In this document: one piece after another, positions 1 to 34,564 of the stretch | Layout of the letters: the number at the start of each line of letters is the position of its first letter | Position numbering within the stretch: the first letter of the stretch is position 1 | Origin: a virus | Lineage: Duplodnaviria > Caudoviricetes | DNA length: 34,564 nt | Virus record (IMG/VR): IMGVR_UViG_3300037722_000464 | Span: 1-34,564 of that record | Direction: 5' to 3' (one strand) | Notes under the pieces: generated by a model | Databases searched by the model: none | What the model saw: only the letters and a program-made list of their open reading frames with translations | Told to the model about the DNA's origin: nothing | Program-made: the position numbers and the translations under genes

Positions 1-118
1 TGCCGTTTCACAACAAGAAATTGCAACAAAATACATGGCAATAAAGGCAGAGTTGAGAGAATACACCCGGCGCGCATCACTATCTGAACTTGACGAGATG
101 TTGAATAATCTTGTTTAG
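1..118 (+). CDS. 3' part of a small cassette-borne ORF (AVSQQEIATKYMAIKAELREYTRRASLSELDEMLNNLV*)
   Basis: Frame is open from 2 to TAG at 116-118, 1 nt before the attC-like R box GCCTAAC (120-126). It is in frame with the ATG at 34560 if the window ends are joined. Confidence 0.55.
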   Translation, partial: AVSQQEIATKYMAIKAELREYTRRASLSELDEMLNNLV

Positions 119-119
119 C

Positions 120-224
120 GCCTAACGATCTTAGATCAGCGCACGGCGACGAGCCATGCGAGGATCGGCGAATTGAACGAGGAGCACAGCCGCCAATTCC
201 GTTCGCTGAATTGGATGGTTAGGG
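120..224 (-). other. attC-like recombination site A
   Basis: GCCTAAC (120-126) to GTTAGGG (218-224). Inner arms TCAGCG 136-141/CGCTGA 204-209 and ACGG 143-146/CCGT 199-202. 5-nt spacer GGATG before GTT. Intergenic; the most degenerate of the three sites. Confidence 0.72.
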
Positions 225-438
225 TGCGGGAGGTACGTATGGCAGAGTCTAGCTGGAAACCTTTCCCTGAAAGTTGCCCCGAGTGTGGGGAGGATTCGGA
301 GATATTCACAACCTCAGGCGGATATGGGTATGACGCCGACCCGGTAAGGTGCGCCGATCCTTCTTGCGGGGCAAGGGGGTACTGGTCGGGGGATTCAGAA
401 TCCGAGTTTTATGTTAATTGGGACGTTTAACACCCTAA
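126..438. mobile_element. Putative gene cassette 2 (site A body plus Zn-ribbon ORF)
   Basis: GTTAGGGTG (218-226) is the exact reverse complement of CACCCTAAC (431-439), as expected if the unit circularises at AA/C. Confidence 0.75.
239..430 (+). CDS. Small Cys-rich Zn-ribbon protein (63 aa), cassette-borne
   Basis: GGAGG at 229-233 then ATG 239. CPEC...CADPSC motifs. Stop immediately before site B. Confidence 0.7.
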   Translation: MAESSWKPFPESCPECGEDSEIFTTSGGYGYDADPVRCADPSCGARGYWSGDSESEFYVNWDV

Positions 439-517
439 CGGTTGAAGTAACCGGCGGCGTCGTGCTGCAACTACGAAGCACTCGTGTGGACCCGTCCGGT
501 TCACTGATGGGTTCGTT
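433..517 (-). other. attC-like recombination site B
   Basis: CCCTAAC (433-439), 6 nt, AGTAACC (446-452) ... GGTTCACT (498-505), 5 nt, GTTCGTT (511-517). The hairpin leaves C502 and T495 unpaired on the + strand, the canonical attC geometry when read on the minus strand. Confidence 0.82.
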
Positions 518-553
518 TTTGCCATACCCGCAAGACCCCGCTTTTGCAAACTG

Positions 554-1468
554 ATGGAGGATCAATTGAATGAGCTGGCACTTTTCGCAGGCGCTGGAGG
601 CGGAATACTTGGAGGCAAACTGCTTGGATGGAGAACCGTTTGCGCCGTGGAAGTCAACACCTTTTGCGCCCGACGACTCATGCAGCGCCAAAATGAAGGA
701 CACCTGCCACCGTTCCCCATTTGGGACGATGTTCGTACCTTCGATGGACACCCCTGGCAAGGAGTTGTTGACGTTGTTTCTGGTGGCTTTCCCTGCCAGG
801 ACATCAGCGCCGCCGGGACGGGAAACGGGATTGACGGGGAACGGTCTGGATTGTGGCTGGAAATGGCGCGAATCATCGGTGAGGTACGACCTCGCTTTGC
901 GTTTGTGGAAAACTCGCCAATGCTCACTTCTCGGGGACTCGGAACCGTACTCGGAGACCTGGCCTCGATGGGGTACGATGCGGAATGGGGAGTGTTGGGA
1001 GCGGCAGATGTGGGCGCGAATCACCAGAGAGACAGGATTTGGATTGTGGCCTACCGTGACTGTTTGCGGAAACTACAATCGAAAAGGTTTGAGCAAGAAC
1101 AGCGGGGACGGATTGGCGACGGCGGTGGCATATTGGCCGACTCCAACGAAATCGGACGGCGGCGGCGGGCCGGGATGTTCGGGCAGGGAGGGCGGATTGA
1201 ACCTAAGAACGGCTGTAACGAAATGGCCGACGCCGACTGTCAACGACTCAAAAAACAGCACCTTGCCACCATCTCAAGTGAAACACGACAACATCTCTGG
1301 GGCGCTGCTGCGTATGGGCGAGAAAACTGGTGGGCAACTGAACCCGGAGTGGGTCGAGTGGCTCATGGGGTGGCCTCTCGGGTGGACCGACTGCAAGCCC
1401 TTGGAAACGGACAGGTGCCACAGTGCCATGCCGAGGCTTGGCAACGCCTGATTTTGCGGGGTAGTTAA
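554..1468 (+). CDS. DNA (cytosine-5) methyltransferase, alpha polypeptide (probable start TTG 566)
   Basis: Motif I LFAGAGG, IV SGGFPCQD, VI ENS, VIII HQRDRIWIV, X RLQALGNGQVP. No motif IX in this frame. SD GGAGG at 556-560. Confidence 0.92.
   Translation: MEDQLNELALFAGAGGGILGGKLLGWRTVCAVEVNTFCARRLMQRQNEGHLPPFPIWDDVRTFDGHPWQGVVDVVSGGFPCQDISAAGTGNGIDGERSGLWLEMARIIGEVRPRFAFVENSPMLTSRGLGTVLGDLASMGYDAEWGVLGAADVGANHQRDRIWIVAYRDCLRKLQSKRFEQEQRGRIGDGGGILADSNEIGRRRRAGMFGQGGRIEPKNGCNEMADADCQRLKKQHLATISSETRQHLWGAAAYGRENWWATEPGVGRVAHGVASRVDRLQALGNGQVPQCHAEAWQRLILRGS
570..1451 (+). CDS. Overlapping alternative-frame ORF, probable methyltransferase beta polypeptide
   Basis: 293 codons open inside the MTase gene, with three WPT(P/V) repeats and the motif IX-like GQLNPEWVEWLMGWPLGWT. 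Confidence 0.7.
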   Translation: MSWHFSQALEAEYLEANCLDGEPFAPWKSTPFAPDDSCSAKMKDTCHRSPFGTMFVPSMDTPGKELLTLFLVAFPARTSAPPGRETGLTGNGLDCGWKWRESSVRYDLALRLWKTRQCSLLGDSEPYSETWPRWGTMRNGECWERQMWARITRETGFGLWPTVTVCGNYNRKGLSKNSGDGLATAVAYWPTPTKSDGGGGPGCSGREGGLNLRTAVTKWPTPTVNDSKNSTLPPSQVKHDNISGALLRMGEKTGGQLNPEWVEWLMGWPLGWTDCKPLETDRCHSAMPRLGNA

Positions 1469-1480
1469 GCGGGCGGCAAA

Positions 1481-1502
1481 AACGAACCTTTGATTAGACG
1501 GA
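1481..1502 (-). other. attI-like simple site heading the cassette array
   Basis: Minus strand reads TCC-GTCTAAT-CAAAG-GTTCGTT (L box, 5 nt, R box) with no partner hairpin arm. Resembles, from memory, the attI1 CCCTAAA-ACAAA-GTT and attI2 CTAAT-AAAAT-GTT cores. Confidence 0.6.
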
Positions 1503-1517
1503 CCGTGCAAGGTTGCC

Positions 1518-1832
1518 ATGTACCGTAAACGCACCAAGGGAAGTCGAAAATTCAACGAACGCATGGCCGCCGCCCGTGCAGCAAAGGAGCGTCTCCGCCT
1601 CGAAGGAGACGCTCCTGATTACCCCGCTGAACCTCTCCTGATCCGCCGGCGGGTGATCATCGAGGATTACGACGGCGGCCAGGTGGTGCGGCACGAGTTT
1701 ACGCTGGCCCGATCCGGGCGGATTGACAGCTACGATGTTTCGGCCGATGGGGTGTCCCTCGGTCGCATGGGGTGGGCGCGGGCTCTTGTTTTTGTCCGCA
1801 AGGCGTTTATCCGCACCGGTCGATTCGATTGA
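1518..1832 (+). CDS. Hypothetical basic protein
   Basis: 104 aa ORF, co-oriented between the attI-like site and the activator. Confidence 0.65.
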   Translation: MYRKRTKGSRKFNERMAAARAAKERLRLEGDAPDYPAEPLLIRRRVIIEDYDGGQVVRHEFTLARSGRIDSYDVSADGVSLGRMGWARALVFVRKAFIRTGRFD

Positions 1833-1864
1833 ACCTTTTATGCAAACTTGTCAGGGAGGAACAG

Positions 1865-2122
1865 ATGGAAAACGCCGAGATTCTGAGGGAGTTTTATGGT
1901 CGTCTGCACCGGGAGTTCGATCACCTGGCCCCGGTGATCATCGCGGTGATCGTGGAGGAGTTGGGCGGGCAACGGTTGACGTTTCCCGACCGGCGCACCA
2001 TGGACCGCATGGAGCGGGACCGCAGGATACGCACCCGTTTCAACGGCTGCAACGGTCAGGAGCTGGCTCTGGCGTTTGATCTTTCTCCCCGGCAGATCCG
2101 CACCATCGTCTCCGATAAATAA
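1865..2122 (+). CDS. Mor/C-family transcription activator (probable late-gene activator)
   Basis: GGAGG then ATG 1865. LGGQRLTFP...RDRRIRTRFNGCNGQELALAFDLSPRQIRTIV matches the Mu Mor/C pattern. Lies directly before the structural operon. Confidence 0.85.
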   Translation: MENAEILREFYGRLHREFDHLAPVIIAVIVEELGGQRLTFPDRRTMDRMERDRRIRTRFNGCNGQELALAFDLSPRQIRTIVSDK

Positions 2123-2245
2123 TTAGTGAAGGCTATTGGCAGAAGGCTTCCCCCGGTTATGATAAAAGGTTGTCCGTATGCAACTCCCTCCTGTCCCGGC
2201 TGCCCGGGCCCGGCTACCCGGGCAGCCAATTTTTAAGGAGGGGCA
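2123..2245 (+). promoter_or_regulatory. Probable activator-dependent late promoter and leader hairpin
   Basis: -10-like TATGAT 2158-2163 with no good -35. GAAGGCT repeated at 2128 and 2142. Hairpin GGCTGCCCGGG 2198-2208/CCCGGGCAGCC 2217-2227 with outer CCCTCCT/AGGAGGG. Confidence 0.5.
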
Positions 2246-2270
2246 GGATCAATCTACCCAGGGGTGACAC

Positions 2271-3953
2271 ATGACCGGTGCCGATATCGTCCGATTTCAT
2301 GAATCCCTGAAAGCCTCCCGCCTCCCCCTCGAACATCACGTTCGCCAGTGTTACCAATATTCCCACCCCATCCGTGGCGTTGAATTCGGCGCCGGTAACG
2401 ACATCACCCCTGAAGTAGCCCAACAGCAGGCCGCGCAGATGCAGGCCGGTCTCAATGACAGTACCGTAACCGATTCGGCCAATATTCTGGCCAGCACTCT
2501 GGTCTCCGGCATGACCCCGGCCAATTCCCTGTGGTTCGGGTTCGGTGCCGGAGACGATGCCAGCGGCGAGGTCAAGGCCTGGCTCGATGGCGAGGCAACG
2601 GAGATCCACAAGGGCATTCATTCGAGCAACTACGATTCCGCCGGGTTCGAAGCCATGCTCGACGTGGTGGACGCCGGATGGTGCGCCCTCTACATCGAGG
2701 AGGGCGAAGAAACGGACTACATGTTCGAGACCTGGCCCCTGGCCTCGTGCTGGTTTGCGACGACCAAAAAAGGCGGTCTGGTTGATACGGTCATTCGCCA
2801 GTTCACGCTGACGGCACAGCAGGCGGTGCGCGAGTACGGCAGTCGCTGTCCGGAGAAGATTGTCGAGGCCGTGGCAAAAAATCCCTATCAGCGTTTTCCC
2901 TTTTTGCAATACATCGCGCCGAAGTCCCTGGAGAAGGGGAAGCCGAAGGCGACAAAGGATGCCCTGCTGCCGTTCGATTCTTTCCATGTCTGCACCACCA
3001 CCAAGCGGATCGTGCGCAGCGGCGGTTACGCCGAGTTTCCGGTGGCCGTTCCGCGTTGGCTGAAGCTGCCGAACAGCGTCTATGCTCAGGGCCCGGTGTC
3101 TTTTGTGCTGCCGGACGCCAAGACCCTGAACGAGGTGGAGCGGTTGAGTCTGGCCAACGGAGACATGCAGATTTCGGGGATGTGGGGCGCGGTCGATGAT
3201 GGCGTACTGAATCCGAAGACGGTCCGGATCGGCCCGAAAAAGATCATCATGATGAAATCGAAGGATTCATTTTTCCCGATCAATCCCCCGGGAAAGATGG
3301 AATTCGGCTCGATCAAGGGGGAGGAAAAACGCTCCACCATCCGCCGCATGATGATGGCCGATCAGCTCGGGCCTCTCAACGAGCAGGGCCCGGCCCGCAC
3401 GGCGACCGAATGGCACTACCGCGTCAATCTGCTGCGCCAACTCCTCGGGCCGATGTTCGGCCGGATGCAGAGCGAGTTTTTACAGACCGTGGTCTTTCGC
3501 TGTTTTTACATCAAGCTGCGCAAGGACATCAAAAACAAGAAGTTTCCGCCCGAGCCTCTGCGTCAGCAGCCCCTGCGGCTGCGCTACATCTCGCCGTTGG
3601 CCCGGGCGCAGCAGATGGAAGACGTGGCGGCGATGGATCGTTTCGAAATGGGGCTGCTGGATAAATCGAAAGTTCGCGCCGAGACAATGGATGTTTACGA
3701 CTGGGACGCCGCCGAACGCAAGCGCGGCGAGCTGCTGGGTGTGCCGCAGTCGCTGATTCTCACCCCCGAAAAGATCAAGGAACTCCGCAAGGTGCGCGAG
3801 GATCAGGCCGCCAAAGCTGCCCAGGGCGCTCAGGCCGCCGCCACTCCCGGAGCCGGGGCGATGATGCCCGCCGGAATGCCGGGACCCGGACAGCCGGGCG
3901 GCAAGCGCGTTGCCGCTCCCTCTCCTTCCGAGTTGGGAGGCCTGAATGTCTGA
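2271..3953 (+). CDS. Portal (head-tail connector) protein
   Basis: 560 aa with T7 gp8/BPP-1-type motifs: DSTVTDSANILASTLVSGMTP..WF, FPVAVPRW..YAQGP, RTATEW, LLGPMFGRMQSEFL, YISPLARAQ. Confidence 0.93.
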   Translation: MTGADIVRFHESLKASRLPLEHHVRQCYQYSHPIRGVEFGAGNDITPEVAQQQAAQMQAGLNDSTVTDSANILASTLVSGMTPANSLWFGFGAGDDASGEVKAWLDGEATEIHKGIHSSNYDSAGFEAMLDVVDAGWCALYIEEGEETDYMFETWPLASCWFATTKKGGLVDTVIRQFTLTAQQAVREYGSRCPEKIVEAVAKNPYQRFPFLQYIAPKSLEKGKPKATKDALLPFDSFHVCTTTKRIVRSGGYAEFPVAVPRWLKLPNSVYAQGPVSFVLPDAKTLNEVERLSLANGDMQISGMWGAVDDGVLNPKTVRIGPKKIIMMKSKDSFFPINPPGKMEFGSIKGEEKRSTIRRMMMADQLGPLNEQGPARTATEWHYRVNLLRQLLGPMFGRMQSEFLQTVVFRCFYIKLRKDIKNKKFPPEPLRQQPLRLRYISPLARAQQMEDVAAMDRFEMGLLDKSKVRAETMDVYDWDAAERKRGELLGVPQSLILTPEKIKELRKVREDQAAKAAQGAQAAATPGAGAMMPAGMPGPGQPGGKRVAAPSPSELGGLNV

Positions 3954-4643: not shown

Positions 4644-5509
4644 AGCGTATCCTTTGCAACCCGTTTCCCCTCCACGTCGACCTGCTCCCCCGCGAGGGAG
4701 AAGCCGCTGCCGCAGCCGGTGCCGCCGCCGGTGAAGGTGATCAGGCCGCCGCTGCTGCTGCCGCCGAGAAGGCCCCCGGGGTCGCGGGCGGTCTGCTGAC
4801 CGGCAAAACCGCCGAAGGCAAACCGGCCGAAGTCAAGGGCGACGAATTCACCATTCCCGAGAAGTTTCTCGTGAACGGTGAAGACGGCAAACCCAACTGG
4901 GAAGCCATTGCCCGTAAGGCGATTCCCAGCTATGGCAACTTGGAAAAGCGCTTCGGCTCGGGGGACGCTCCTCCCGAGACGCCCGACAAGTACAAGATCG
5001 AGAATTATCTTCCCGAAGGGTACGAGCGCAACCCCGAGGGCGAGAAAAAGGTTTTGGCCTCCCTCCATTCGGTCGGGCTGAACAACAAACAGGCGCAAGG
5101 GGTGCTGGCGCTGTACGGCAGTCTCCTCGGCGAAGGGCTGGCCGCTGAAAAGGCCAGCATGGAAAAAGCCTCCGCAGAGCTCAAGACCGAATGGGGCGCC
5201 GACTATGACAAGCGGATGAGCCGCAGCAACTTTGCCCTGTCTCAGGCGCCCGAGACGCTGACCAAGGCCATCACCACCAAGCCGCACCTGATGAACGATC
5301 CCGACGTGATCCGGCTTCTCGATTTCGTCGGAGAGCAGTTCGAAGACGACAAGAGCGCCAACGAAATGGGCGCCGGAGAGATCGAGGATGTGGACCAGCT
5401 GCGCCGCAGCCCCGCCTACATGGATGAGAAACACGCCGACCACGGCCGCGTGGTGGCCAAGGTGAACGCGGCCTATGCCCGCGGCTACAAGGACAAGACC
5501 GGGGGTTAA
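4640..5509 (+). CDS. Capsid scaffolding/assembly protein
   Basis: Ala-rich N-terminus, IPEKF, YGNLEKRFG..PETPDKY, LKTEWGADYD, C-terminal AY.D.KHADH..VV. Immediately upstream of the capsid gene. Confidence 0.85.
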   Translation: MKRILCNPFPLHVDLLPREGEAAAAAGAAAGEGDQAAAAAAAEKAPGVAGGLLTGKTAEGKPAEVKGDEFTIPEKFLVNGEDGKPNWEAIARKAIPSYGNLEKRFGSGDAPPETPDKYKIENYLPEGYERNPEGEKKVLASLHSVGLNNKQAQGVLALYGSLLGEGLAAEKASMEKASAELKTEWGADYDKRMSRSNFALSQAPETLTKAITTKPHLMNDPDVIRLLDFVGEQFEDDKSANEMGAGEIEDVDQLRRSPAYMDEKHADHGRVVAKVNAAYARGYKDKTGG

Positions 5510-21940: not shown

Positions 21941-24370
21941 ATGAAGATGAGATGGTTCCCCTGGCCGCTGTTGGCCCTGCTGCTGTGCTTCTGTGCGCCG
22001 ACCTGGGCGACGGTGCCGGTTGTCACCCCGGAGATCAGCTATACCGCCACCGGCGCCGCCACCGATTATGCGTTCCCTTTCCGGATCTTCGCCGCCACTG
22101 ATCTGGAGGTGACTGTCAGCGACGTGGTGCAGACCCTGAATGTCGATTACACCGTGACCGGCATCGATGTCCCCGCCGGCGGAACGGTGGTCTTTACCAC
22201 CCCTCCGGCCGACACCCTGGCGGTGCTGATCTCGCGGATCACCCCGATTGATCGGCAAACCGATTATTCGACCGGCGGGCCGCTGCGGGCCGCCACCCTG
22301 AACCGCGACCTTGATCGCATCGTTACGCAGGTGCAGGACGTGGACCGCCAGGCCACCGCCAACGCCGACGCCGCCGGGCGCGCGATCAAGTTCCCCCCTG
22401 GAGACTCGGCCGTCTCGGTGCTGCCGGATGCGGCGACCCGGGCCAGCAAAATGTTGGGGTTCGATGTCGCCGGCGGGGTTGTGCCGGTGGATGTGGTGGG
22501 GGATTTGTCGGGGTATGCGCTGAGTTATACCCCGTTGGCGGATGCTCTCGCTCGGTATGATTCGGATGGGGTGATTCAGGGCACGTCGATCATTCACAAA
22601 GTCGACACCATCGCCGATCTGCGGCTGATCACCGGCTCGCCGGGACGGTCGGCGGTTCAGGTCCTCGGCTACTATGCTGCGGGGGATGGCGGCGGTGGTC
22701 CTGTTCGGCACTGGGTGAGTGGCAAGGCGGTCGGTTATTACACGGCTGTGACCGGTGTCGAGCCAGATGATGGAGGGTCGGTCATTGTGCCGACTGGAGG
22801 GGATGGGAGCGCTGCTTGGCTTTGGGAATGGAGCAGGCCGATTAACGTGCGCTGGTTCGGGGCTGTTGGTGATGGGATTACCGATGATGGGCCCGTTATC
22901 CAAGCCACACTAACCGCAGGGAATAATAATGCTTTGCCCATTTACATCCCAAGGGGGAAATATCTCATTACCGACACCCTGAATATTTACAGAGGGCAGG
23001 AAATCAGGGGAGATCGTGACCATATTTACGCTTATGGGAAACTTGGACCATTTGCAACCGAGTTGGTGTTTGCTCCGACGTCAGAAAAAGACCTTCTCCA
23101 TATTGTTTTCGACGCTTCCCTCGATGGAGGTACTGCACCTGATCAGGGGTACACTTATGGCGTTAAAATTTCTAATATGCTCTTGACGGGAAACTCTACT
23201 GGTGGAGGATCCTTTAGCCGCTATGGTCTTGATGCTAATCAAGCATCTACGGGAGTTTTCGAAAATATTTCGATTAGATACTTCCAGTATGGTGTGAACT
23301 GCGCCTTTACTATAACTTGCAAATTTAACAAGATACGGATCATTAACTGCGTTAATGCTTGTGTCAGGTATGGGTCAAGGACAAGCACAACCGACGTGTG
23401 GTTTGAGTGTTATTTTGGTAGCTCTCCCTGGGCGGCTATCATCGGTGGCACGTCAGTAGGTATACAATTTCAAAACTCTCTCTTTGAGTCGCTTTCGGTT
23501 GGTGCCATAGATATTTATAGGGAGGCGTCGGGTGTTCAGGTCAACAACTGTTATTCAGAGAACGTTCCAGCTACCGCTAACGTGAACTTGAACGTCTTCC
23601 GAGTCGGTGTAAATGGCGCTACTAGTGCAGTAACAACGGCTTTACAGATCAATGGTGGTTTCTTTGCCGGGTATAATGGTGGTGGGGTTTACGGTGCTTT
23701 CGTTGATCTTGATTATGCATACAAAGTCATAATCAACGGAGTGCATGTTACCAGATTCACCAACTATATCAGGACAACCGGAAACACATCTGGCTGGGCT
23801 GTTTATGTGGCGGGGGGCGCAAGGCAGAGTGTAACCACCTTTGCGAATGATATAACTAAAGTCCACGGAAATTATATTAATGCTGATCTCAACGGGGCAC
23901 AGGGACCGAGAGTTAGAGCAGAAGTTGTTCAGGCAAACACAAGAGTCGAGACAGGGTATATCGACTTAAGCTATCTACTTGTTGCGAACAATAAAATTGG
24001 ATACGGTTCCGCCGCCCCAACATCAGGAACTCATGTTCAAGGCGAAATAGTTCTAGACTCAACACCATCGGCCTCGGGTTTTCTCGGGTGGGTTTGCACG
24101 TCAAGCGGTACATTCTCGGCGGCCACTGATGCCACTGGGGATACTGATGGATTAACTGCCGTTATCACTGGTATGGCGGACACGAGTGATTTTGTCGCTG
24201 GTAATTATATCACCATTAGTGCGGGTTTCCCGGCTGGGTACATCACAGTTGTGTCTGTTGACGGGCCTACTCAGATCACGGTGAGCGTATCATCTAACTC
24301 AGCACAGTCAAACGTAACTGTTGCAACCGTAGACCCGGTGTTCAAAACTTTTGGAGCTATATCACCATAA
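21941..24370 (+). CDS. Tailspike/tail fibre: T7-type N-terminal anchor domain plus pectin-lyase-like beta-helix
   Basis: AAGGAG SD then ATG 21941. YTATG..TDYAFPFRIF...DL.V...DYTVTG...LNRDLDRI anchor; INVRWFGAVGDGITDD beta-helix start; AT-richer distal part. Confidence 0.88.
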   Translation: MKMRWFPWPLLALLLCFCAPTWATVPVVTPEISYTATGAATDYAFPFRIFAATDLEVTVSDVVQTLNVDYTVTGIDVPAGGTVVFTTPPADTLAVLISRITPIDRQTDYSTGGPLRAATLNRDLDRIVTQVQDVDRQATANADAAGRAIKFPPGDSAVSVLPDAATRASKMLGFDVAGGVVPVDVVGDLSGYALSYTPLADALARYDSDGVIQGTSIIHKVDTIADLRLITGSPGRSAVQVLGYYAAGDGGGGPVRHWVSGKAVGYYTAVTGVEPDDGGSVIVPTGGDGSAAWLWEWSRPINVRWFGAVGDGITDDGPVIQATLTAGNNNALPIYIPRGKYLITDTLNIYRGQEIRGDRDHIYAYGKLGPFATELVFAPTSEKDLLHIVFDASLDGGTAPDQGYTYGVKISNMLLTGNSTGGGSFSRYGLDANQASTGVFENISIRYFQYGVNCAFTITCKFNKIRIINCVNACVRYGSRTSTTDVWFECYFGSSPWAAIIGGTSVGIQFQNSLFESLSVGAIDIYREASGVQVNNCYSENVPATANVNLNVFRVGVNGATSAVTTALQINGGFFAGYNGGGVYGAFVDLDYAYKVIINGVHVTRFTNYIRTTGNTSGWAVYVAGGARQSVTTFANDITKVHGNYINADLNGAQGPRVRAEVVQANTRVETGYIDLSYLLVANNKIGYGSAAPTSGTHVQGEIVLDSTPSASGFLGWVCTSSGTFSAATDATGDTDGLTAVITGMADTSDFVAGNYITISAGFPAGYITVVSVDGPTQITVSVSSNSAQSNVTVATVDPVFKTFGAISP

Positions 24371-24464
24371 AAACATGGGTATAGTGCCAAACCAACCGTC
24401 AGCCGGTGCCAAAGCAATCGGCGCGGTACGGGGCAATAATCAACAGTGATAGAAAGGCGATCCC

Positions 24465-25593: not shown

Positions 25594-25639
25594 TGGTGCC
25601 CAGAGACGGAATCGAACCGCCGACACGAGGATTTTCAGT
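25594..25639 (-). other. attP: attP core: 3' half of tRNA-Phe(GAA)
   Basis: Minus strand ACTGAAAATCCTCGTGTCGGCGGTTCGATTCCGTCTCTGGGCACCA contains the anticodon loop, T arm, acceptor 3' strand and CCA. The 5' half is absent; abuts int. Confidence 0.92.
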
Positions 25640-26840
25640 TTTTAGTTTGTTTCTTGGGGGCTGGTGGGGTGGCGGGTTTGCGGGGGGTTGGGTTGTCCCG
25701 GGTGGACTTTGGTTCTACGAAGGCGCTGAATTTTTCGGATTCGGTTTGGAGGAAGGGGGCCATGTGGGTGTAAATCTCGGTGGTCTTGATGGTGGAGTGG
25801 CCCATGATTTCTTGTACGGTGCGCAGGTTCATGCCGGAGGCTACGGCGTGGGTGCCGAAGTTGTGGCGCAGGAGGTGATGATAGACCCGCTTGTCGATGC
25901 CGGCTTTTTCGGCGGCTCGGAGTAGGGCCTTGCGGATGCTGTACCAGGGTTTGCCGGTGTGGGGATTGATGCAGAGGTGGCCGGTTCGGTTGGTCTGAAG
26001 GGCGTCTTCGAGGGACTGGCGCAGCCGGCGGGTGGTGATCGGGACGATTCGCTCTTTGTCGCCTTTGCCGCGGACGTAGAGGAGCCCGAAACCCAGGTCG
26101 ACATCCTGGGCGCGGATGCCGAGGTATTTGCCGCCGCCGAGGACTTCGGCGCGGCGCAGACCGCCGTCGTTGTAGAGGAGGAAGGTCAGGCGGTACTGCG
26201 GTTCGAGATGTTCGAGGAGGGTGTTGACTTCATCGGGGTGCAGCGGTCGGGCCCGGGCGGCGGTGGTTTGTTTGACGGGGAAGAGTTTGACGCGGATCGG
26301 GTCGCAGTAGCGGTGCTCGGCGGCCCACTTGAAAAAGCCGGAGAGGTAGGAGAGTTCTTTGTTGATGGTGCGCTTGCTGATCGTGCGGGTCTGTTCGGTG
26401 TGGCGCAGGGCATAGGCGGTGTCGCTTTCGCCCTTGCGGCGCTTGGGCTCGACGCGGGTGGCCAGGCGCTGGCCCTTGTATTGTTCGATGAGGCTGGGGG
26501 TGATTTCGGCGAGGTAGAGAGGCCCGAAGAAGGGGACCAGGCGCACCAGGGAGCAGTTGAGATCTTTGCAGGTGCTGGCTTCGTGATCGTTGGCGTATTC
26601 CTGTTTCCAGTCGCCGAGCAGATCATAGACCTTGGGATTGATCATCGACACCGGTTCACGCCGGGAGAGACGGCGGAGCTCCATCTCGAGGGCGAGGGCT
26701 TCGGCCTTGGTGTGCGGGTGGTCGACGCTGCCGAATTCGCGGCGGAGCCGGGGCCCTTTGCGTCCCTGGGGGCGGTAGTCGATGATCCAGACGCCGGGGA
26801 TGCTTTCGCCGGCTGGATCGGTTTTGGGTTTGACAGCCAT
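25635..26840 (-). CDS. int: Tyrosine integrase
   Basis: GLRRAE, GKGDKER, HLLRH, MGHS..TTEIYTH catalytic residues; N-terminal arm-binding-like domain; ends in attP. Confidence 0.95.
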   Translation of the reverse strand: MAVKPKTDPAGESIPGVWIIDYRPQGRKGPRLRREFGSVDHPHTKAEALALEMELRRLSRREPVSMINPKVYDLLGDWKQEYANDHEASTCKDLNCSLVRLVPFFGPLYLAEITPSLIEQYKGQRLATRVEPKRRKGESDTAYALRHTEQTRTISKRTINKELSYLSGFFKWAAEHRYCDPIRVKLFPVKQTTAARARPLHPDEVNTLLEHLEPQYRLTFLLYNDGGLRRAEVLGGGKYLGIRAQDVDLGFGLLYVRGKGDKERIVPITTRRLRQSLEDALQTNRTGHLCINPHTGKPWYSIRKALLRAAEKAGIDKRVYHHLLRHNFGTHAVASGMNLRTVQEIMGHSTIKTTEIYTHMAPFLQTESEKFSAFVEPKSTRDNPTPRKPATPPAPKKQTKN

Positions 26841-26846
26841 ATTGTT

Positions 26847-27182
26847 TTATAAATGTCGGTTGAATAAAAGAGTGTAAAAACGAGACATCGTGCCAATTTT
26901 AATAAAAAATGTAACAATCATGAAAATGATAAAAGGTATCCAAAAAATAAAATCTTCATAAAACCACCTATCAAGTTCAAATAGGTGATATGCACCGATT
27001 GACATTAGAATACTTGAAACAATTCCATATAACGGTGTAAGTGATAAACCAAGACAAGAAATTATCGGATTTCTGGATAGGCCGAGGAGGCAAAGAAAAA
27101 GACATAAGAGACATGTGATAATTGTACCTGTGCAGAAACCAATTACACTAGAACCTAAAATCTCATTCACAATATCCTCCAC
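26847..27182 (-). CDS. AT-rich multi-TM membrane protein in the lysogeny operon
   Basis: About three hydrophobic segments; strongly AT-rich relative to flanks; between repressor and int. Confidence 0.7.
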   Translation of the reverse strand: MEDIVNEILGSSVIGFCTGTIITCLLCLFLCLLGLSRNPIISCLGLSLTPLYGIVSSILMSIGAYHLFELDRWFYEDFIFWIPFIIFMIVTFFIKIGTMSRFYTLLFNRHL

Positions 27183-27183
27183 C

Positions 27184-27588
27184 CTAGCCGTTTGACTTCC
27201 GCTCTAAGTTCAACCCCTTCGATTCCTTTTCCTGCCCTTCTCTTCCGTGTGATTCGCGTAACGCCAACAGCATATCCTCGATGCTTTCCATGATTCTCTC
27301 CTGCCTTCGTTCGTCCAGTTGGCTGAACGCAGAGAGAAGTTGTTCTTCTTTTTTAGATAGTCCCCTTCCCGCGGTCTTGTCCCACTGTGGGGCGTCCCCT
27401 TCTGCGACAAACTCGGAAATAGGCAGGTGGTAGGCGTTGGCCAGTTTTACGATGATATCGAGGGTTGGTTTTGTTTCGGTGTAGAGCAATTTGTAAATGG
27501 TTCCCTGGCTGATCCCCGCCTTGCGGGCTATGTCAACCTGCTTTTCTCCCTCCTGAACCTTCTTCTTTACCAGATCGCGAATGTCCAT
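27184..27588 (-). CDS. CI-like repressor (XRE HTH)
   Basis: QVDIARKAGISQGTIYKL..PTLDIIVKLA; divergent from cro; no S24 peptidase domain seen. Confidence 0.85.
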   Translation of the reverse strand: MDIRDLVKKKVQEGEKQVDIARKAGISQGTIYKLLYTETKPTLDIIVKLANAYHLPISEFVAEGDAPQWDKTAGRGLSKKEEQLLSAFSQLDERRQERIMESIEDMLLALRESHGREGQEKESKGLNLERKSNG

Positions 27589-27616
27589 TGTCCCCCCTAA
27601 AATCAGTGTTGGGATT

Positions 27617-27677
27617 TTACTACATTATTTGTATTGACATCGTATTTACTCTGTAGTAATTTCTGACTACACAGCAA
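27617..27677. promoter_or_regulatory. Immunity switch: rightward promoter and operators
   Basis: TTGACA (27634-39), 17 nt, TAATTT (27657-62). Operator-like TTACTCTGTAGTAA (27646-59), TGACTACACAGCAA (27664-77) and a half site at 27617. Confidence 0.75.
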
Positions 27678-27687
27678 CGAGGACGCC

Positions 27688-27882
27688 ATGGAATTTCATT
27701 CTGAAAAGATCCGCATGTTGCGGAAAAAAAACCATCTGAGCCAGCAAGCTCTGGGCGAGTTGTCCGGGATAGATCAGCGCCAACTCAGCCGGTATGAGAC
27801 TGGGGTAAATGTCCCGACTAAGAAGAATCTGCATCGCCTGGCCTCGGCCTTGAATGTTCCCGAACGCATTTTTTTTACGTAG
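27688..27882 (+). CDS. Cro-like XRE HTH protein
   Basis: LSQQALGELSGIDQRQLSRYETG..P; first gene of the rightward operon. Confidence 0.88.
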   Translation: MEFHSEKIRMLRKKNHLSQQALGELSGIDQRQLSRYETGVNVPTKKNLHRLASALNVPERIFFT

Positions 27883-27939
27883 TCAATTTACTGCGTGGTA
27901 AACAGGCCGTCACAGGCAATTCACCGGACAGGGGGCACC

Positions 27940-28248
27940 GTGGAACAGCAGCTGATCGAGGCGATCAAAAAGACCGTTGACGAGTGTTTGAGATCGTACC
28001 GCCGGGGCAAGCAGTATCTGGACGGGCGGGCCAACGGTATGGAGATGTATCTCTTCGTCTTTCATGACGTTTTGGGCCGGTTGGATGGCGTGATTATGGT
28101 CGTGCATTACCTTCCGGAGACGCTCCAGACAGATGTTGGGGAGCTTATTACGGCGGCGCAAAAGACGATTTGGGCTGAGGACTCCATTCAGATCGGGGCG
28201 ACGGTCGAAGAGAAACGGGCGTTGGCTCTGAAGGCGGTGAGCGCATGA
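27940..28248 (+). CDS. Hypothetical early protein
   Basis: AGGGGG SD then GTG 27940; ATGA coupling to the next gene. Confidence 0.65.
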   Translation: MEQQLIEAIKKTVDECLRSYRRGKQYLDGRANGMEMYLFVFHDVLGRLDGVIMVVHYLPETLQTDVGELITAAQKTIWAEDSIQIGATVEEKRALALKAVSA

Positions 28249-28628
28249 CACCGAACGAGATCAGCGACGAGTTGGTGAGGGAGCTGCCGGACTTTCGCGC
28301 GGCGATCCGGGCCTGTCTGTTGTTTTCGGGAAAGCAGATAAAGGGGGTGGCTTTTGATCTGGGGATCGAGCCGAGCCACCTGTCGAAGATGGTGAACGCG
28401 GGGGAGGAACCGCGGCACTTCCCTCCTGAAAAAATCCCGTTGCTGATGTCGGTGTGCGGCAACGAGATCCCGCTGCGCTGGCTGTCGCTGTCGCGTGGTT
28501 ATCCCTCTCCGGCCCGGGTGTTGTCCCTGGAGGCGGAACTGGAGCGGCTGCGGGCGGAGAACGCCCAGCTGCGGGGTGAGAGCAAGGTTCTGATCAACGT
28601 CTTTAAAACCGTGGAGATTGGCAAATGA
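28245..28628 (+). CDS. CII-like HTH regulator with C-terminal coiled coil
   Basis: KGVAFDLGIEPSHLSKM...RHFPPEKIPLLMSVCGNEIPLRWL; CII position. Confidence 0.7.
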   Translation: MTPNEISDELVRELPDFRAAIRACLLFSGKQIKGVAFDLGIEPSHLSKMVNAGEEPRHFPPEKIPLLMSVCGNEIPLRWLSLSRGYPSPARVLSLEAELERLRAENAQLRGESKVLINVFKTVEIGK

Positions 28629-28810
28629 CGACGGAGCAGAGACTGAGGGCGATGGAGAAGCGCCAGGAGGAGCTGGCCAACGAGGTTGCACGGCTGCGGT
28701 CGCGGCTTGGTGAGGGTGAACTGACGGCGATGCAGCAGGTGAACGTGCGGGAGTTGGCTCGGGAGATCCATCTGCACGGCTGGCCGCAACGGCAAAGGGG
28801 GCAGAAATGA
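28625..28810 (+). CDS. Small coiled-coil protein
   Basis: ATGA-coupled on both sides. Confidence 0.65.
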   Translation: MTTEQRLRAMEKRQEELANEVARLRSRLGEGELTAMQQVNVRELAREIHLHGWPQRQRGQK

Positions 28811-29145
28811 AATCAGGCTTTTGGATATTGGCGCTGGTGACGGTGTTGTTGTGGCTGGCGGTGGGTTTTTTGGCTGTCGAAGCGATGACTAATCCTCCCG
28901 AAAACAGGGACAGCGCCGAGCGTCGTCAGGTGGCCTTGCTTTGCTTCGAATCGGGTTCTCTTTCGCGGGAGGAGGCTGTGGATAAGTCTGTGTATAGCCC
29001 ATGTAATCCCGTGTCCAACTTGTTGGACATAGATCAGGCTCTTAAAGCTAAGCATCCAGGGGGCGGGATCAAAACCCCCCGCCGCCCCCTGTGGAAGAAC
29101 CTTAAAAGTTCATTGAAGCAAGCTTCAACGGACAAAAGCATTTGA
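28807..29145 (+). CDS. Hypothetical protein with N-terminal TM; 3' half overlaps candidate origin
   Basis: ATGA coupling; hydrophobic residues 5-24. Confidence 0.5.
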   Translation: MKSGFWILALVTVLLWLAVGFLAVEAMTNPPENRDSAERRQVALLCFESGSLSREEAVDKSVYSPCNPVSNLLDIDQALKAKHPGGGIKTPRRPLWKNLKSSLKQASTDKSI

Positions 29146-29230
29146 GAGCGCAGAGGCAACAAGGCGCTTGTCTCTAATTTGATGGTGTTCGTGTTTTTTC
29201 AGCACAGGGCAAGACCGCGCAAGACCGCGT
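28977..29230. other. Candidate replication origin
   Basis: Perfect DnaA box TGTGGATAA 28977-85, near-box TGTGTATAG 28989-97, palindrome 29012-29, GC hairpin 29057-91 and tandem GCAAGACCGC repeat, all upstream of a wHTH gene. Confidence 0.5.
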
Positions 29231-29277
29231 GAAGAAAGATCACGCCCCGTGCCAAGTGCTGATTCAGGAGGTTTTAC

Positions 29278-29733
29278 GTGACGACAGCAGTTTTCGAGCC
29301 GAATAAAACCAGCTTTGCCATCATGAAGCTGGTGAATGGTTATTTTTGCAAGACCCGCAAGCCCTGGACCCTGATGAGTCAGGTGTGGATTCTCGAAAAG
29401 TTGGACGCCTGGCACGGGATCAAGATTGCCCGCTCGACCCTCAATTACAACCTGAAGATTTTGAGAGAGCAGGGCCTAATCGAGACGGTGACGCGCCATA
29501 AGCGTGACCAGGTGTCGGGTGAGTTCGTGTGTCGGGTGACGCTGTATAAGGCGGCGAAAAAGTTGAGGAAATTCTTTGCCCGTCTGGCTACGTATTTCAA
29601 GCGCTGCAGTTGGATACCGGATATCAAGAGTTTGCGCCAGGGGGCCGTTCCGGTGGTGGGGGCAGCGACGACGCAGGTTGAAGTTTTCGATAAATACGTT
29701 GAGGAAGTCAGGAGACGAAGAAAGAAGAAATGA
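29278..29733 (+). CDS. Winged-HTH protein, candidate replication initiator
   Basis: AGGAGG SD then GTG. SQ..ILE.L...HGIKIARSTLNYNLKILREQGLIE...RH......G......LY pattern; replication-module position. Confidence 0.6.
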   Translation: MTTAVFEPNKTSFAIMKLVNGYFCKTRKPWTLMSQVWILEKLDAWHGIKIARSTLNYNLKILREQGLIETVTRHKRDQVSGEFVCRVTLYKAAKKLRKFFARLATYFKRCSWIPDIKSLRQGAVPVVGAATTQVEVFDKYVEEVRRRRKKK

Positions 29734-30149
29734 CCGGTCCGGATATTCTTGAAATTTTTGCGCGGTTGCAGGCGAAGTTTGCCGATCGCAGGTACAAGGG
29801 CGCCGAGGTGAATGCGGTGTGGGCCGGTCTGTTGCCGTGCTGCCGGGAATCGATGGAGTGGGCGGCGGGTGTGTTGATGAAGAGCGCAAAGAGTTTGCCG
29901 CAGGCCTCGACGGTGCTGGAGCTGACGGTGGAGCAGGAGCGGCGGATGGTGGGGAGTGCGTCGGCTGCGCCATCGGTGAATAAGGATGACCGGGGCCGGG
30001 AAGCCTTGAGACTGATGATTCGATTCAATACCGGGGAGATCAGCGAGAAGGAGTGGATCGCCGAGATGTACCGGATGAGTGAGAAATACAGGGACAGCGA
30101 GTTTGCCGCTGCGGCGCGTGGCCGCGATTTGTCGAGACAGGAGGTTTGA
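29730..30149 (+). CDS. Hypothetical protein (replication-module partner)
   Basis: ATGA-coupled to the wHTH gene. Confidence 0.65.
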   Translation: MTGPDILEIFARLQAKFADRRYKGAEVNAVWAGLLPCCRESMEWAAGVLMKSAKSLPQASTVLELTVEQERRMVGSASAAPSVNKDDRGREALRLMIRFNTGEISEKEWIAEMYRMSEKYRDSEFAAAARGRDLSRQEV

Positions 30150-30150
30150 A

Positions 30151-30465
30151 GTGATGAGTGATCGAATCTGTATTTTTGGGGAGAAGAAGTCTGACGAGGA
30201 GTTTGCCGGGCGGTTTCATGACCTGGTGGCGGCGTCGCCGTTTGATGGTGTGATCATCGAGCGCTCGAGCGTATATCAGTCGGAGGAGAAACCGGGGGCT
30301 TACTTCCGGCTGCGCCTGCTCGGGCATCGTCTGAAGATGAATGTCGTCGTGTTTGTCGATGGCGAAAGGCTGACGGTGGAGGGTGTTTTGAAGGTGATTC
30401 GCAAGCAATTGATGCTCTGGGGCTCGATGGAAGCGCGGAAAAAAATTTACCTGAAAGCCTGCTGA
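30151..30465 (+). CDS. Hypothetical protein
   Basis: AGGAGG SD before GTG 30151/ATG 30154. Confidence 0.6.
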   Translation: MMSDRICIFGEKKSDEEFAGRFHDLVAASPFDGVIIERSSVYQSEEKPGAYFRLRLLGHRLKMNVVVFVDGERLTVEGVLKVIRKQLMLWGSMEARKKIYLKAC

Positions 30466-30566
30466 TACCTAGTGGAAACAATTTGGAAAAAGTATTAGCC
30501 AACTCTTTGATTCACCGGCTCTCAACGTATGAAAAATAATTATCAGTGGAAAGGGGGAAGGGGATT

Positions 30567-30947
30567 ATGGCGGAAATCAGAATGCTCTGTGACAACAGAA
30601 TTGAACTGCAGCGATGGAGCAAGGGATTCGGTGTGGTTGTCGAGTCGCAGGGTGTTGAAATCATGATCGTTGTGCCCGATTTGGCGGCACTTGATCTGTT
30701 GCAGAATGTGCTACCGGGGGCGGTCAGTAATGCCGAATCTGGCTTTGACGTGGTGTTCTATCCGACGACCAGGTTACCCGCTTCAGTGACTCTCTCCTCG
30801 CGCGCGCGGTTGGGAGGAGTGGCGGCGGCAGGCAGCGTGCCGGAACGGGTCCTCGTGCGGTTGGGAGTTGGACACGGAAACCGTGCCGAATTGGACAGAG
30901 AACAAGACGAAATGACACGGATACCGTGCCAAGGGGAAGAGAAATGA
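30567..30947 (+). CDS. Hypothetical protein
   Basis: Purine-rich SD, ATG 30567, ATGA coupling to the next gene. Confidence 0.5.
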   Translation: MAEIRMLCDNRIELQRWSKGFGVVVESQGVEIMIVVPDLAALDLLQNVLPGAVSNAESGFDVVFYPTTRLPASVTLSSRARLGGVAAAGSVPERVLVRLGVGHGNRAELDREQDEMTRIPCQGEEK

Positions 30948-31228
30948 CGGGCGCTGAGTTCAAACAGGCGAGAAACGAGCGGTTGGGGGTGAGTCAGGGG
31001 ACGCTGGCGAAGATGATCCATACCCCGAAACGGACGATTCAGGACTGGGAGACGGCGGAAAGAGTGCCGGGCGTGGCGGCGATGGTGATGACGCTGCTGC
31101 TGCAGCGTGACCGGTGGGTGTTGGAAGGGATCAAGGCGAAGGTTGCCAAGGATATTGACGCGGCGGGAATGATCGTGAGCGAACCGGATCCCGCCTTTAG
31201 CGACGAGGAGGAAGAGGCCCATGGGTAA
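30944..31228 (+). CDS. XRE-family HTH protein
   Basis: MTGAEFKQARNERLGVSQGTLAKMIHTPKRTIQDWE..P. Confidence 0.82.
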   Translation: MTGAEFKQARNERLGVSQGTLAKMIHTPKRTIQDWETAERVPGVAAMVMTLLLQRDRWVLEGIKAKVAKDIDAAGMIVSEPDPAFSDEEEEAHG

Positions 31229-31499
31229 AATCAGTGCCGATCAGCTGCGCGAGTTGATTATTGCCATCATCATCGAGAATGCCGAAGTGCGGGCGTCGGT
31301 GGGGCCGGTGTGGCATCCGCCGTTTATCGACCTGGAGGATCTGCCGGCGGAGTTCGACACGGCCCTGGATGAGATCAACGAGGTGCGGACCGGGCAGAAG
31401 CTGGCGCGGGTTGAGGTGCTGCAGGATTTCAAGACGGCGGTGATCGATACCTTGGTGCGCCGAATGGAGTCGGCGGGCCGTGTTCTGGTCAGGGGGTGA
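31221..31499 (+). CDS. Hypothetical acidic protein
   Basis: Overlaps the previous stop; GAGG SD. Confidence 0.6.
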   Translation: MGKISADQLRELIIAIIIENAEVRASVGPVWHPPFIDLEDLPAEFDTALDEINEVRTGQKLARVEVLQDFKTAVIDTLVRRMESAGRVLVRG

Positions 31500-31502
31500 G
31501 GG

Positions 31503-32582
31503 ATGGCGGCGATTCGGCGGGATGTGCTTAAAAACGGCAAGTCGCGATATCGGGTGCGGGTGCGGGTGAACGGCGGCTATCGCAGCGCCACGAAGCCGAA
31601 CCGGGCCGAGGCGCGGCGCTGGGCTGATGCAACGGAGCGGGAGCTGACGCTGAACCGGCTGTCTCCGTTGGGGCAGTCGGAGATTCTGACCTTCGGCGAC
31701 CTGGTGGATAAGTACCGCCGCCAGGTGCTGCCTTACAAGAAGTGGCGCACTCAGCGGCAGCAGGAGCAACAGCTGCGGTGGTGGGTGGAGTACCTGGGGG
31801 CCGACCGGCCGCTGGTGCGTATCTCGCCGCCGGTGATCAGCGACGCCAAGGAGGCGCTGCTGCCCTTGTCGCCCGGCACGGTCAATCGTTATCTGGCGAT
31901 TCTTTCGCACCTCTTTGCGCAGGCGGTGAAGGAATGGCGCTGTGTCGACAGCAATCCGGTGGCGTCTGTCGGTCGGTTGCCGGAACCTCGAGGGCGGACG
32001 CGCTGGCTGAAGAGCGACGAGCGGCGCCGGTTGATGGACGCCTGCAATGCCACGGATAACCGGTTTTTGGGGACGATTGTTACTCTGGGACTGGCAACGG
32101 GTGCGCGGTCGTCGGAGATTCGGCGGATGCGCTGGGACATGCTCGATCTGTTCCGCTCGATGATGGTCGATGGACGGCAGGTGGAGGTGGGCCGGTATTA
32201 CCTCGAGGAGACGAAGACCGACGAGGCCCGGGCGCTGATCATCTTCGGCGAGGCGCTGCAGCTGATGCGCCGTTTGTATCGAGAGCGTCGCCCGGGGTCG
32301 GTCTGGTGTTTCCCTTCGAGTCGCGAGACGCACCAGCCGATTGATTTTCGGTATGCCTGGGAGCAGGCGCTGATTGCCTCGCGGGTCGAGAACTTCTGTT
32401 TTCATGACTTGCGGCACTCGGCGGCCAGTTATCTGGGGGAGCAGGGGGCGTCTCTGGCACAGATCGGGGCGATCCTCGGTCACAAGACGGCCAACACGAC
32501 GAAGCGCTACACCCATTTTACGAGCAGCGGCACGGAACATCTGGTGGCAAAGATGAACGGTTCTATTTTCGGGAGGGTTTGA
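31503..32582 (+). CDS. Second tyrosine recombinase (phage integrase/Rci-like)
   Basis: TGARSSEI, ETKT, FHDLRH, LGHKT..TKRYTH all intact; N-terminal YRVRVR...EARRWA...E. Confidence 0.93.
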   Translation: MAAIRRDVLKNGKSRYRVRVRVNGGYRSATKPNRAEARRWADATERELTLNRLSPLGQSEILTFGDLVDKYRRQVLPYKKWRTQRQQEQQLRWWVEYLGADRPLVRISPPVISDAKEALLPLSPGTVNRYLAILSHLFAQAVKEWRCVDSNPVASVGRLPEPRGRTRWLKSDERRRLMDACNATDNRFLGTIVTLGLATGARSSEIRRMRWDMLDLFRSMMVDGRQVEVGRYYLEETKTDEARALIIFGEALQLMRRLYRERRPGSVWCFPSSRETHQPIDFRYAWEQALIASRVENFCFHDLRHSAASYLGEQGASLAQIGAILGHKTANTTKRYTHFTSSGTEHLVAKMNGSIFGRV

Positions 32583-32583
32583 A

Positions 32584-33075
32584 GTGGCAAAAATGTTTGT
32601 ACATCGAGTGCATCAACCGAATGACTGGTCTTGCTTTGCCGCGGTGGCGGCAATGATCACCGGGGACGATCTTGAAGATTTCGTGGCACATGTCGGTCAC
32701 GACGGGTCGGCCATAGTCGAGGACGGTCCTTTTGAGGATGGCCGGCAGGGGTTCGCGCTCTGCGAAGTGATCGGGTATCTGGCCAGTCGCGGGTTTGTCA
32801 TGGGGGTGAGCGCCCCGGTGAAGACCAAAATCTCGCGCGTTGGTTGGGCTGGGATACCGATCAGGGTTTTCGTTCCGGCATGGGAGCCCGCTATTCTGAT
32901 CGTGCAGGGGGCCAGATACAATCATGCTGTTTTTTGGACGGGGAGAGAGGTTATTGACCCGAACCCCGAACGATTGAACGATGTCGAGACTCGCAACTAT
33001 GACGTGCTTGAGTGGTGGCCGGTGAAAAGATCAACGACGGGAGCGGGAGGGAAGCATGATGGAACGAGTGCTTGA
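32584..33075 (+). CDS. C39-like (papain-fold) cysteine peptidase
   Basis: Q-PNDWS-C-FAAVAAM, NHAVFW, VIDP (Q/C/H/D set). Confidence 0.65.
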   Translation: MAKMFVHRVHQPNDWSCFAAVAAMITGDDLEDFVAHVGHDGSAIVEDGPFEDGRQGFALCEVIGYLASRGFVMGVSAPVKTKISRVGWAGIPIRVFVPAWEPAILIVQGARYNHAVFWTGREVIDPNPERLNDVETRNYDVLEWWPVKRSTTGAGGKHDGTSA

Positions 33076-33340
33076 ACGATGTCGGCAGATTTACAACCGG
33101 CACAATGAAGAAGAGCAGTTTCGCAAGTTTGCCGAGGAGGTTGACGAGCTGCGGGAGGAGTTCGAGATTGCGCGATTCAAAGGGCGCGGTTTGCACCTGG
33201 CGGGAGAGATGGCGGATGTCTGCATCATGGCGCTGCAACATGCCATGGCCATGAATGAGATGGGCCTGATGATTCGCCAGGTGATCATCGAGAAGCTGGA
33301 CCGGCAGGATCGCCGCGACGGTCTGGCCGGAGGAGAGTGA
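33056..33340 (+). CDS. MazG-like nucleotide pyrophosphohydrolase
   Basis: KFAEEVDEL...LAGEMADV (EExxE...ExxD). Confidence 0.7.
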   Translation: MMERVLERCRQIYNRHNEEEQFRKFAEEVDELREEFEIARFKGRGLHLAGEMADVCIMALQHAMAMNEMGLMIRQVIIEKLDRQDRRDGLAGGE

Positions 33341-33558
33341 CCATGAACGTTACCTTGACTTGTGGCACCTGTGGCCACAAAGGGGAATTTGACGATTTTT
33401 GCAAGACGCCGGTCGGCGGGGATCTTCCCCGTGGGGTTTATCAGTGTCCGGTTTGCAATCGGGCGGTCCGCGTGACGGCTGGCCCTGGCGTTCGCTTTCC
33501 TTCAGGGCTGTATGTGCCTGGGCCGATCACCCTTGTCCCTGTTGATGCGAGGCTGTGA
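33337..33558 (+). CDS. Zn-ribbon protein
   Basis: CGTC...CPVC; GGAG SD. Confidence 0.7.
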   Translation: MTMNVTLTCGTCGHKGEFDDFCKTPVGGDLPRGVYQCPVCNRAVRVTAGPGVRFPSGLYVPGPITLVPVDARL

Positions 33559-33559
33559 G

Positions 33560-33823
33560 ATGACCGAGGGGATGCGGCAATTGCCGTTAAGCGATATGCC
33601 CCTGAACGTGGACGCCAAACAACTGCTGGACAGATTGGCGACTTGGTCTGCGGGCGGTGTCGGAGGGATGTCTTTCGGGACCCTGATCTATCAAACAGGT
33701 TGGGTGCGTGATCGAGTAAGCGAGGGAGTTCAGGAGTTGCTCGATGCCGGTGTGATTATCAAGCAGGGACCTTGCGGAGAATATTATGTCAGAGCCAAGT
33801 GGGAACACTTCTTTGGAAAATAA
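33560..33823 (+). CDS. Small winged-HTH-like protein
   Basis: GAGG then ATG 33560. LIYQTGWVRDRVSEGVQELLDAGVI......YY. Confidence 0.55.
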   Translation: MTEGMRQLPLSDMPLNVDAKQLLDRLATWSAGGVGGMSFGTLIYQTGWVRDRVSEGVQELLDAGVIIKQGPCGEYYVRAKWEHFFGK

Positions 33824-34016: not shown

Positions 34017-34028
34017 GGGGGGGATTTA

Positions 34029-34531: not shown

Positions 34532-34564
34532 ACACAAACCACAACAGGAGAATACGAAGATGAC

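Follow-up and report, generated by a model that had tools for sequence, protein, structure and literature searches.

How can a phage that encodes no integron integrase hold a row of integron gene cassettes, and how would new cassettes reach it? The window, that is, the whole stretch of DNA analysed here (34,564 nucleotides), is a 34.6-kb linear virus record, approximately 93% complete, and the phage sequence is present in sediment metagenomes. Its genes include portal, capsid, nozzle, T7-like terminase, tail fibre and lysozyme, as well as a repressor, a CII-like protein, a Mor activator and two tyrosine recombinases, an integrase at 25635-26840 and a second, non-IntI enzyme at 31503-32582 within the early operon. 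Given the repressor and integrase genes, the phage is most likely temperate; its host was sought and none was found. The early region runs rightward from 27895 to 34564 and resumes at 1-1832. Outside the array, 214 nt at 33570-33785 (most of one small early gene) are absent from a related phage in run X2, and two low-GC stretches are seen, one with a membrane-protein gene beside the repressor (26847-27882) and one in the C-terminal part of the tail fibre (22900-24400). Also, two short pieces of the window (32834-32866 and ~2654-2685) match public contigs with repeat-like flanks and are probably CRISPR spacers targeting the phage. The surrounding repeats, which we take to be type I-E-like and Geobacter-type I-G, were used in a literature search that found nothing.

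A sequence-only reading had placed attC sites at 120-224, 433-517 and 34446-34531, along with an attI-like site; all were found at these positions, and the four sites are confirmed as real. A geometry scanner applied to the whole window (score at least 13.5) retrieves no attC sites but these three, each scoring best on the minus strand; among 20 shuffled windows, 17 had no match and the set as a whole had four. Likewise, a covariance model trained on 32 attC sites from integrons of bacterial chromosomes (one of 33 candidates was dropped for a doubtful end) ranks the three sites first to third, all on the minus strand, with rough E-values of 9.5e-5 for 34446-34531, 0.0057 for 120-224 and a weak 0.39 for 433-517, the next match being partial (E 1.1). 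An Rfam search gave no match. The sites show AAC/GTT cores, L boxes spaced 5 and 6 nt, and an L'' one base longer than L'. The 7-6-7...8-5-7 spacing described earlier is present, but its canonical reading lies on the minus strand, antiparallel to the plus-strand genes: 433-517 and 34446-34531 fit 7-5-8...7-6-7 on that strand, and the second spacer of 120-224 has 7 nt. With the canonical spacing on the minus strand, each attC precedes, and belongs to, the gene on its right.

The crossovers fall at 34451/34452 in the outermost site (whose family recurs in loci L032, L038 and L312), at 125/126 in the attC of the Zn-ribbon cassette, where the recombinogenic (bottom) strand is the plus strand of the window, and at 438/439 in the attC of the methylase cassette. 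The best predicted fold of 120-224 is a full hairpin on the plus strand (z -2.95). In the array form, the canonical fold has a predicted probability of 0.0015 for 433-517 and 2.4e-5 for 34446-34531; for the 433 site in its circle form, the canonical hairpin is predicted as the best fold (-26.0 kcal/mol).

Each unit is laid out as attC, gene and AA, with the crossover at the AAC left of each site. The Zn-ribbon cassette (126-438, plus strand) holds its attC and a 63-aa CxxC Zn-ribbon gene (239-430; a PF14354 match below cut-off), and the methylase cassette (439-1486, plus strand) its attC and a C5 cytosine methylase, open in two overlapping same-strand frames (554-1468 and 570-1451) that both match PHROG methylase families; the unit lengths of 313 and 1048 bp given earlier are correct. 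In circular form, the ends of the methylase unit are complementary over 13 bp (1475-1487 with 511-523) and those of the Zn-ribbon unit over 9 bp (431-439 with 218-226). Such complementary R''/R' ends in the circle form and the sharing of whole units between phages identify these units as gene cassettes. Of 77 relatives of the methylase, two have an attC-like site immediately in front, one of them convincing; the covariance model with default filters found no attC in 79 methylase loci, default filters having missed one site that was recovered with filters off. This scarcity marks the methylase as an ordinary phage gene that is carried in a cassette only in some cases. For the Zn-ribbon gene and the window end, exact pattern searches retrieved no other viral contig. 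The contigs carrying the Zn-ribbon cassette have a much greater depth than the phage body (180 versus 12-15 in X1, possibly the source sample, and 76 versus at most 3 in X4, as summed contig depths, which are not copy numbers), and this suggests that the cassette is shared with other elements.

At its distal edge, the array abuts a 140-aa early-operon gene (34029-34451, plus strand), and the TAA stop of this gene shares bases with the AAC of the outermost attC. The cassette that begins there (34452-34564, plus strand) is cut by the contig end, and public contigs starting at 34453-34460 run ~400 nt. Positions 1-125 (plus strand) are the end of another truncated cassette, with the C-terminal part of a 61-aa gene and its stop at 118. 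The 34446 site had been joined to the window start, a join that does not hold, the ends not being contiguous: in locus L311, window 1-126 lies inside the 61-aa gene and the DNA upstream is unlike the window end. In the same locus, the attC of the 61-aa-gene cassette is complementary to 118-126 and a different right-hand neighbour begins at AAC. Since the contig breaks inside the array, part of it is missing, and it comprises at least four cassettes. A 40-aa ORF in a 238-bp unit across the joined window ends was rejected as an artefact because the ends do not join. In L312 (reverse strand), from ~2024, a cassette that matches window 1-67 is split by unrelated DNA that begins with an apparent insertion-sequence end.

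The other end of the array is the attI-like simple site (1481-1499, minus strand), with a G/TT core whose crossover lies at 1486/1487, a 5-nt spacer and a degenerate L box, TAAT (1493-1496); the same TAAT-5 nt-GTT spacing is described for a Shewanella attI (PMC9892861). Cassette breakpoints fall at its G/TT. No cognate intI adjoins it; in that place stands the gene of a 104-aa basic orphan protein (1518-1832, plus strand), followed by a Mor-family activator (1865-2122, plus strand; PF08765, E 5e-12), the first gene past the platform and outside the array. The proposal that the early operon ends in a landing site for cassettes is supported.

The polarity of the array is common to its relatives. 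All 60 covariance-model matches in 16 related loci lie on the minus strand, and in 67 of 72 units it is the plus strand that carries the longer ORF; bacterial controls show this in 2 of 19 cases, the other 17 being canonical. PHROG matches fall on 20 of 69 plus-strand ORFs and on none of the 63 minus-strand ORFs; they include methylases, a Mom-like protein, PAPS-reductase-like and radical-SAM proteins and a tRNA-His guanylyltransferase, and they bear out the phage-type cargo suggested before. A simple sigma-70 scan found no promoter-like site on the minus strand of 1-2300. A crude longest-ORF test on 49 intI-bearing viral loci gives 33 inverted versus 26 canonical units, so that inversion is not universal among viral contigs; 13 of the 26 canonical units belong to L143 and L137, and the IntIs of these two loci group with an IntI from a Luteimonas chromosome.

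At this locus, neither an intI with the IntI-specific insertion nor a Pc with cassette genes co-oriented with attC is found, and the attC sites are clustered (at least two) with the integron integrase absent. Judged on these sequence features, the locus is a CALIN whose attI looks functional; it does not amount to a complete integron.

A comparison of related phages reveals the variation by whole cassettes, with breakpoints at AA/C, that the sequence-only reading had put forward as a check. A search with the 104-aa gene gave ten viral loci (L031-L040). Similarity to the window starts at 1485-1487 in five of them (L031-L034 and L037) and at 1490 in L035; in L036 it starts inside the 104-aa gene. 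L038 forms a case of its own, and L039 and L040, beyond the reach of blastn, keep the attI motif. In the window and L031-L034, a 326-nt module of attI plus gene is 93-98% identical, and upstream of it stand five unrelated first cassettes (7-32% ungapped identity). Moreover, whole cassettes recur beside new neighbours at AAC, in L035 and L126 (99.7%), L121 and L126 (100%), L121 and L312 (98%), and the window and L311; the cassette of 100% identity is the first in L126 and internal in L121. In L165, a methylase cassette 76% identical to that of the window lies directly at attI-intI, and one sequencing-run contig joins a 120-224-type attC via other DNA to 1485. Arrays among the related loci reach up to 11 sites (L206). 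For 72 units in 13 arrays, a count that still includes the rejected 238-bp junction unit (match 5), the mean circle complementarity is 8.25 bp and 56 units match over at least 7 bp; permuted controls give 4.56 bp (global) and 5.36 bp (within locus), with none of 5000 reaching 8.25. The mean match of each site to its own array partner is 4.7 bp, and bacterial arrays in circle form give 8.8 bp.

The claimed absence of an integron integrase stands for the genome as assembled (~93% complete), and no IntI was found in seven other whole records with the 104-aa gene (34-91% complete). In sibling phages, the place of this gene is taken by intI. Six of seven viral IntI proteins tested are intact and above the TIGR02249 cut-off, the seventh being a deleted copy in L038. 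The intI gene is followed by terminase or portal genes in L122, L126 and L165 and by a capsid gene in L170, and in all four it sits between the inverted array and the head/packaging genes. L035, with the 104-aa gene, and L126/L123, with intI, are 95-96% identical over 1478 nt downstream; further pairs with this exchange are L037/L165 (69%) and the window/L121 (99% over 114 nt). In L035, the final 11 nt of intI remain behind the 104-aa gene, a remnant suggesting that the small gene took the place of intI. Both genes occur together only in the L038 contig: an IntI match is found at one of 37 small-gene loci and the small gene at one of 52 intI loci. Sibling phages with an intact intI share cassettes and attC families with the intI-less phages. 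In a quick IntI tree, the viral IntIs cluster (6 label changes against 13.6 when shuffled), with sampling biased by the use of phage IntIs as queries and by a genome scan of 1/64 of the collection.

In L038, an intI copy with an internal deletion and a frameshift closes the array, and the DNA beyond it matches the start of the window Mor gene at 99% identity. A search with this intI fragment gave 180 viral matches, of which 80 were kept. In the same stretch (L038 5351-6180), the Mor N-terminus is joined through an 11-bp microhomology to the C-terminal half of the small gene, a fusion that may be a natural recombinant or a misassembly.

From the sites, their polarity, the AA/C breakpoints, the sharing of cassettes and the exchange of intI and the 104-aa gene in one slot, we consider it likely that the window carries an integrase-less phage platform, with genes running backward to attC, at whose attI cassettes are inserted by an IntI acting in trans, most likely that of a sibling phage or prophage, or of the host. 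IntI joins the folded bottom strand of attC to a double-stranded attI (PMC8946536). Here, a circular cassette would fold its attC on the coding strand, and IntI would join it to the double-stranded attI at G/TT 1486/1487. As the bottom strand is the coding strand, cassettes would enter aligned with phage transcription, at the far end of the operon; the array would then grow at the promoter-distal end of the early operon with its genes in line and no Pc, and the gene order suggests transcription from the phage early promoter. A cassette of the host type would be inserted antisense and remain silent, and the polarity would separate the phage pool from that of the host. Finally, this lineage would have swapped its attI-intI for another attI with the small gene and would still receive cassettes. 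Near-identical intI-less modules with different first cassettes suggest that IntI acted in trans after their divergence, and because near-identical phages have their own intact intI at the slot, a co-resident phage is as good a source of IntI as the host. According to a review (PMC8946536), attI sites and IntIs that are not cognate recombine poorly; this is a weak point of the model and a reason to suspect an accessory role of the 104-aa protein.

Alternatively, the array could be a fossil whose cassettes were gathered while intI was present, its variety now arising from homologous recombination in the module or in attC repeats. The 104-aa module adjoins different late regions, the breakpoint lying within the gene (window 1813) as in ordinary homologous exchange, attC families repeat between phages at 80-89% identity, and the intI of L038 is internally deleted. 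Also, the predicted excision circles did not appear: no circle joint was present over 1-3000 in the contigs of four runs, contigs being prone to drop rare forms. Nonetheless, exchange downstream of attI cannot create new first cassettes, and the five near-identical modules have five different ones, each ending at AAC; moreover, 10 of 12 first cassettes at attI of the window type keep at least 8 bp of circle complementarity. A fossil array is therefore unlikely.

The site at 1481-1502 could also be a secondary, attG-type insertion hotspot beside an unrelated gene and not a maintained attI. IntI inserts cassettes at non-att genomic sites, which are recombined as double strands (bioRxiv 10.1101/2022.09.11.507474), and the distal end of the array lies on a stop codon, as in a secondary insertion. 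A third attI-like array end is common to L311 (~5180-5240) and L312 (reverse strand, ~4850-4910), with different genes next to it in the two phages and neither intI nor the 104-aa gene beside it, which would also suit a hotspot. However, a two-box motif, AAC-N4/5-(ATTA or AATA), stands before the 104-aa gene in 28 of 32 loci, where chance would give 5.6%, the motif having been written after seeing the data and six loci excluded (duplicates, truncated loci and L038). The motif is kept in homologs down to ~40-55% protein identity and at different genome positions, and the site occupies the exact slot of attI-intI, which makes such a hotspot quite unlikely. A second conserved motif, TGCAAGGT (1506-1513), is present in 23 of the 28 loci with the attI motif and lies 21-22 nt from AAC regardless of the distance to the start codon, extra DNA included. 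The attI next to the 104-aa gene is unlike the one in the sibling IntI group L122-L130, and its likeness to the attI of L163, L165 and L167 is confined to the core. No SOS-box-like motif was seen near attI or intI in eight loci.

Recombination of the sites by one of the phage's own tyrosine recombinases (31503-32582 or 25635-26840) is highly improbable: although the enzyme at 31503-32582 is co-transcribed ~1.9 kb upstream of the array, both are without the IntI insertion and far below the TIGR02249 cut-off, and one search of five related records with the 104-aa gene, most of them incomplete, gave no match of any strength (0/5).

For the 104-aa protein, 29 homologs were found. In different phages, the module precedes terminase, initiator, xis/int or Mor genes, neighbour labels that are mostly our own reading of N-termini. 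The gene tracks attI and not a phage module, and this speaks against a late regulator of the Q type and in favour of a role at the platform. The protein has no match in Pfam, NCBIfam or PHROG, and searches of GenBank phages and plasmids and of 301 genomes from a single phylum also gave nothing. Its AlphaFold model (pLDDT 84.5) predicts a basic N-terminal helix and a four-stranded sheet, with no Foldseek match in PDB or BFVD at E 0.001; the best Atlas match (0.80) is unnamed. Its link to attI makes the gene a candidate accessory factor for attI recombination, which in some integrons is thought to need one (PMC8946536). A bolder and rather doubtful proposal is that the protein acts as a specialised integron accessory, binds its own attI motif and helps an integrase-less phage to hijack the IntI of another phage or of the host, such phages being satellites of a phage-run, mirror-polarity cassette network.

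Integrons are known as bacterial gene-capture devices; here, the phages of one community share a cassette pool of mirror polarity. The pool is rich in DNA-modification genes (methylases, Mom-like and PAPS-reductase-like), which would help to evade restriction, and it offers a site-specific route to phage mosaicism with exact and predictable breakpoints. L035 and L126 provide a near-isogenic comparison of a phage without intI and one with it. Tools that assign a gene to its downstream attC would likely mis-assign inverted cassettes.

Integron parts in phages have been described before, although the first reading noted that integrons are normally described on chromosomes, plasmids and transposons: phage CALINs, methylase cassettes and IntI1 activity have been published (PMC9892861). 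In that work, Qi, Rajabal, Ghaly, Tetu and Gillings (2023) found three complete integrons, one In0 and 17 CALINs in 10,705 phage genomes, with five methylase cassettes, and IntI1 recombined five of six phage attC sites. The array described here resembles those phage CALINs in its attC clusters without intI and its DNA methylase cargo. In the passages of PMC9892861 compared here, phage CALINs are treated as rare captures (21 of 10,705 genomes), and nothing is said of genes running against attC, of a landing site that is conserved while its first cassettes vary, or of another gene in the place of intI. Within the same set, TJE1 is canonical, its three model matches all being co-oriented with the genes, and in the CALIN of MW202573 (L229, 2069-3738) all three model attC sites are reversed among plus-strand early genes; the inverted layout thus occurs, unremarked in those passages, within the published set. 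On phage integrons, the relevant part of a 2026 review cites only PMC9892861 (PMC13492144), and the portion of PMC8876359 considered adds nothing to the comparison. A literature search, with most subscription journals outside it, found no paper on inverted phage cassettes or on a gene replacing intI.

With canonical bacterial integrons (class 1 and sedentary chromosomal), the phage array shares the attC box geometry, the G/TT crossover, single-gene cassettes, a circle complementarity of 8.25 bp against their 8.8 bp, and an attI at the intI end. In those integrons, bottom-strand selectivity orients the genes towards Pc (PMC8946536, 10.1101/2022.09.11.507474), whereas here the genes are antiparallel to attC, attC precedes the gene, intI is absent, no Pc was found and the newest cassette lies farthest from the inferred promoter. 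The array also resembles SALINs and attG insertions as described by Loot et al. (bioRxiv 10.1101/2022.09.11.507474), in which cassettes lie outside a complete integron and are expressed from resident promoters. Unlike the insertions described there, the phage site is conserved across a gene family and reused to build arrays. What would set this platform apart from the published phage CALINs is its mirror polarity together with a conserved orphan gene in the slot of intI.
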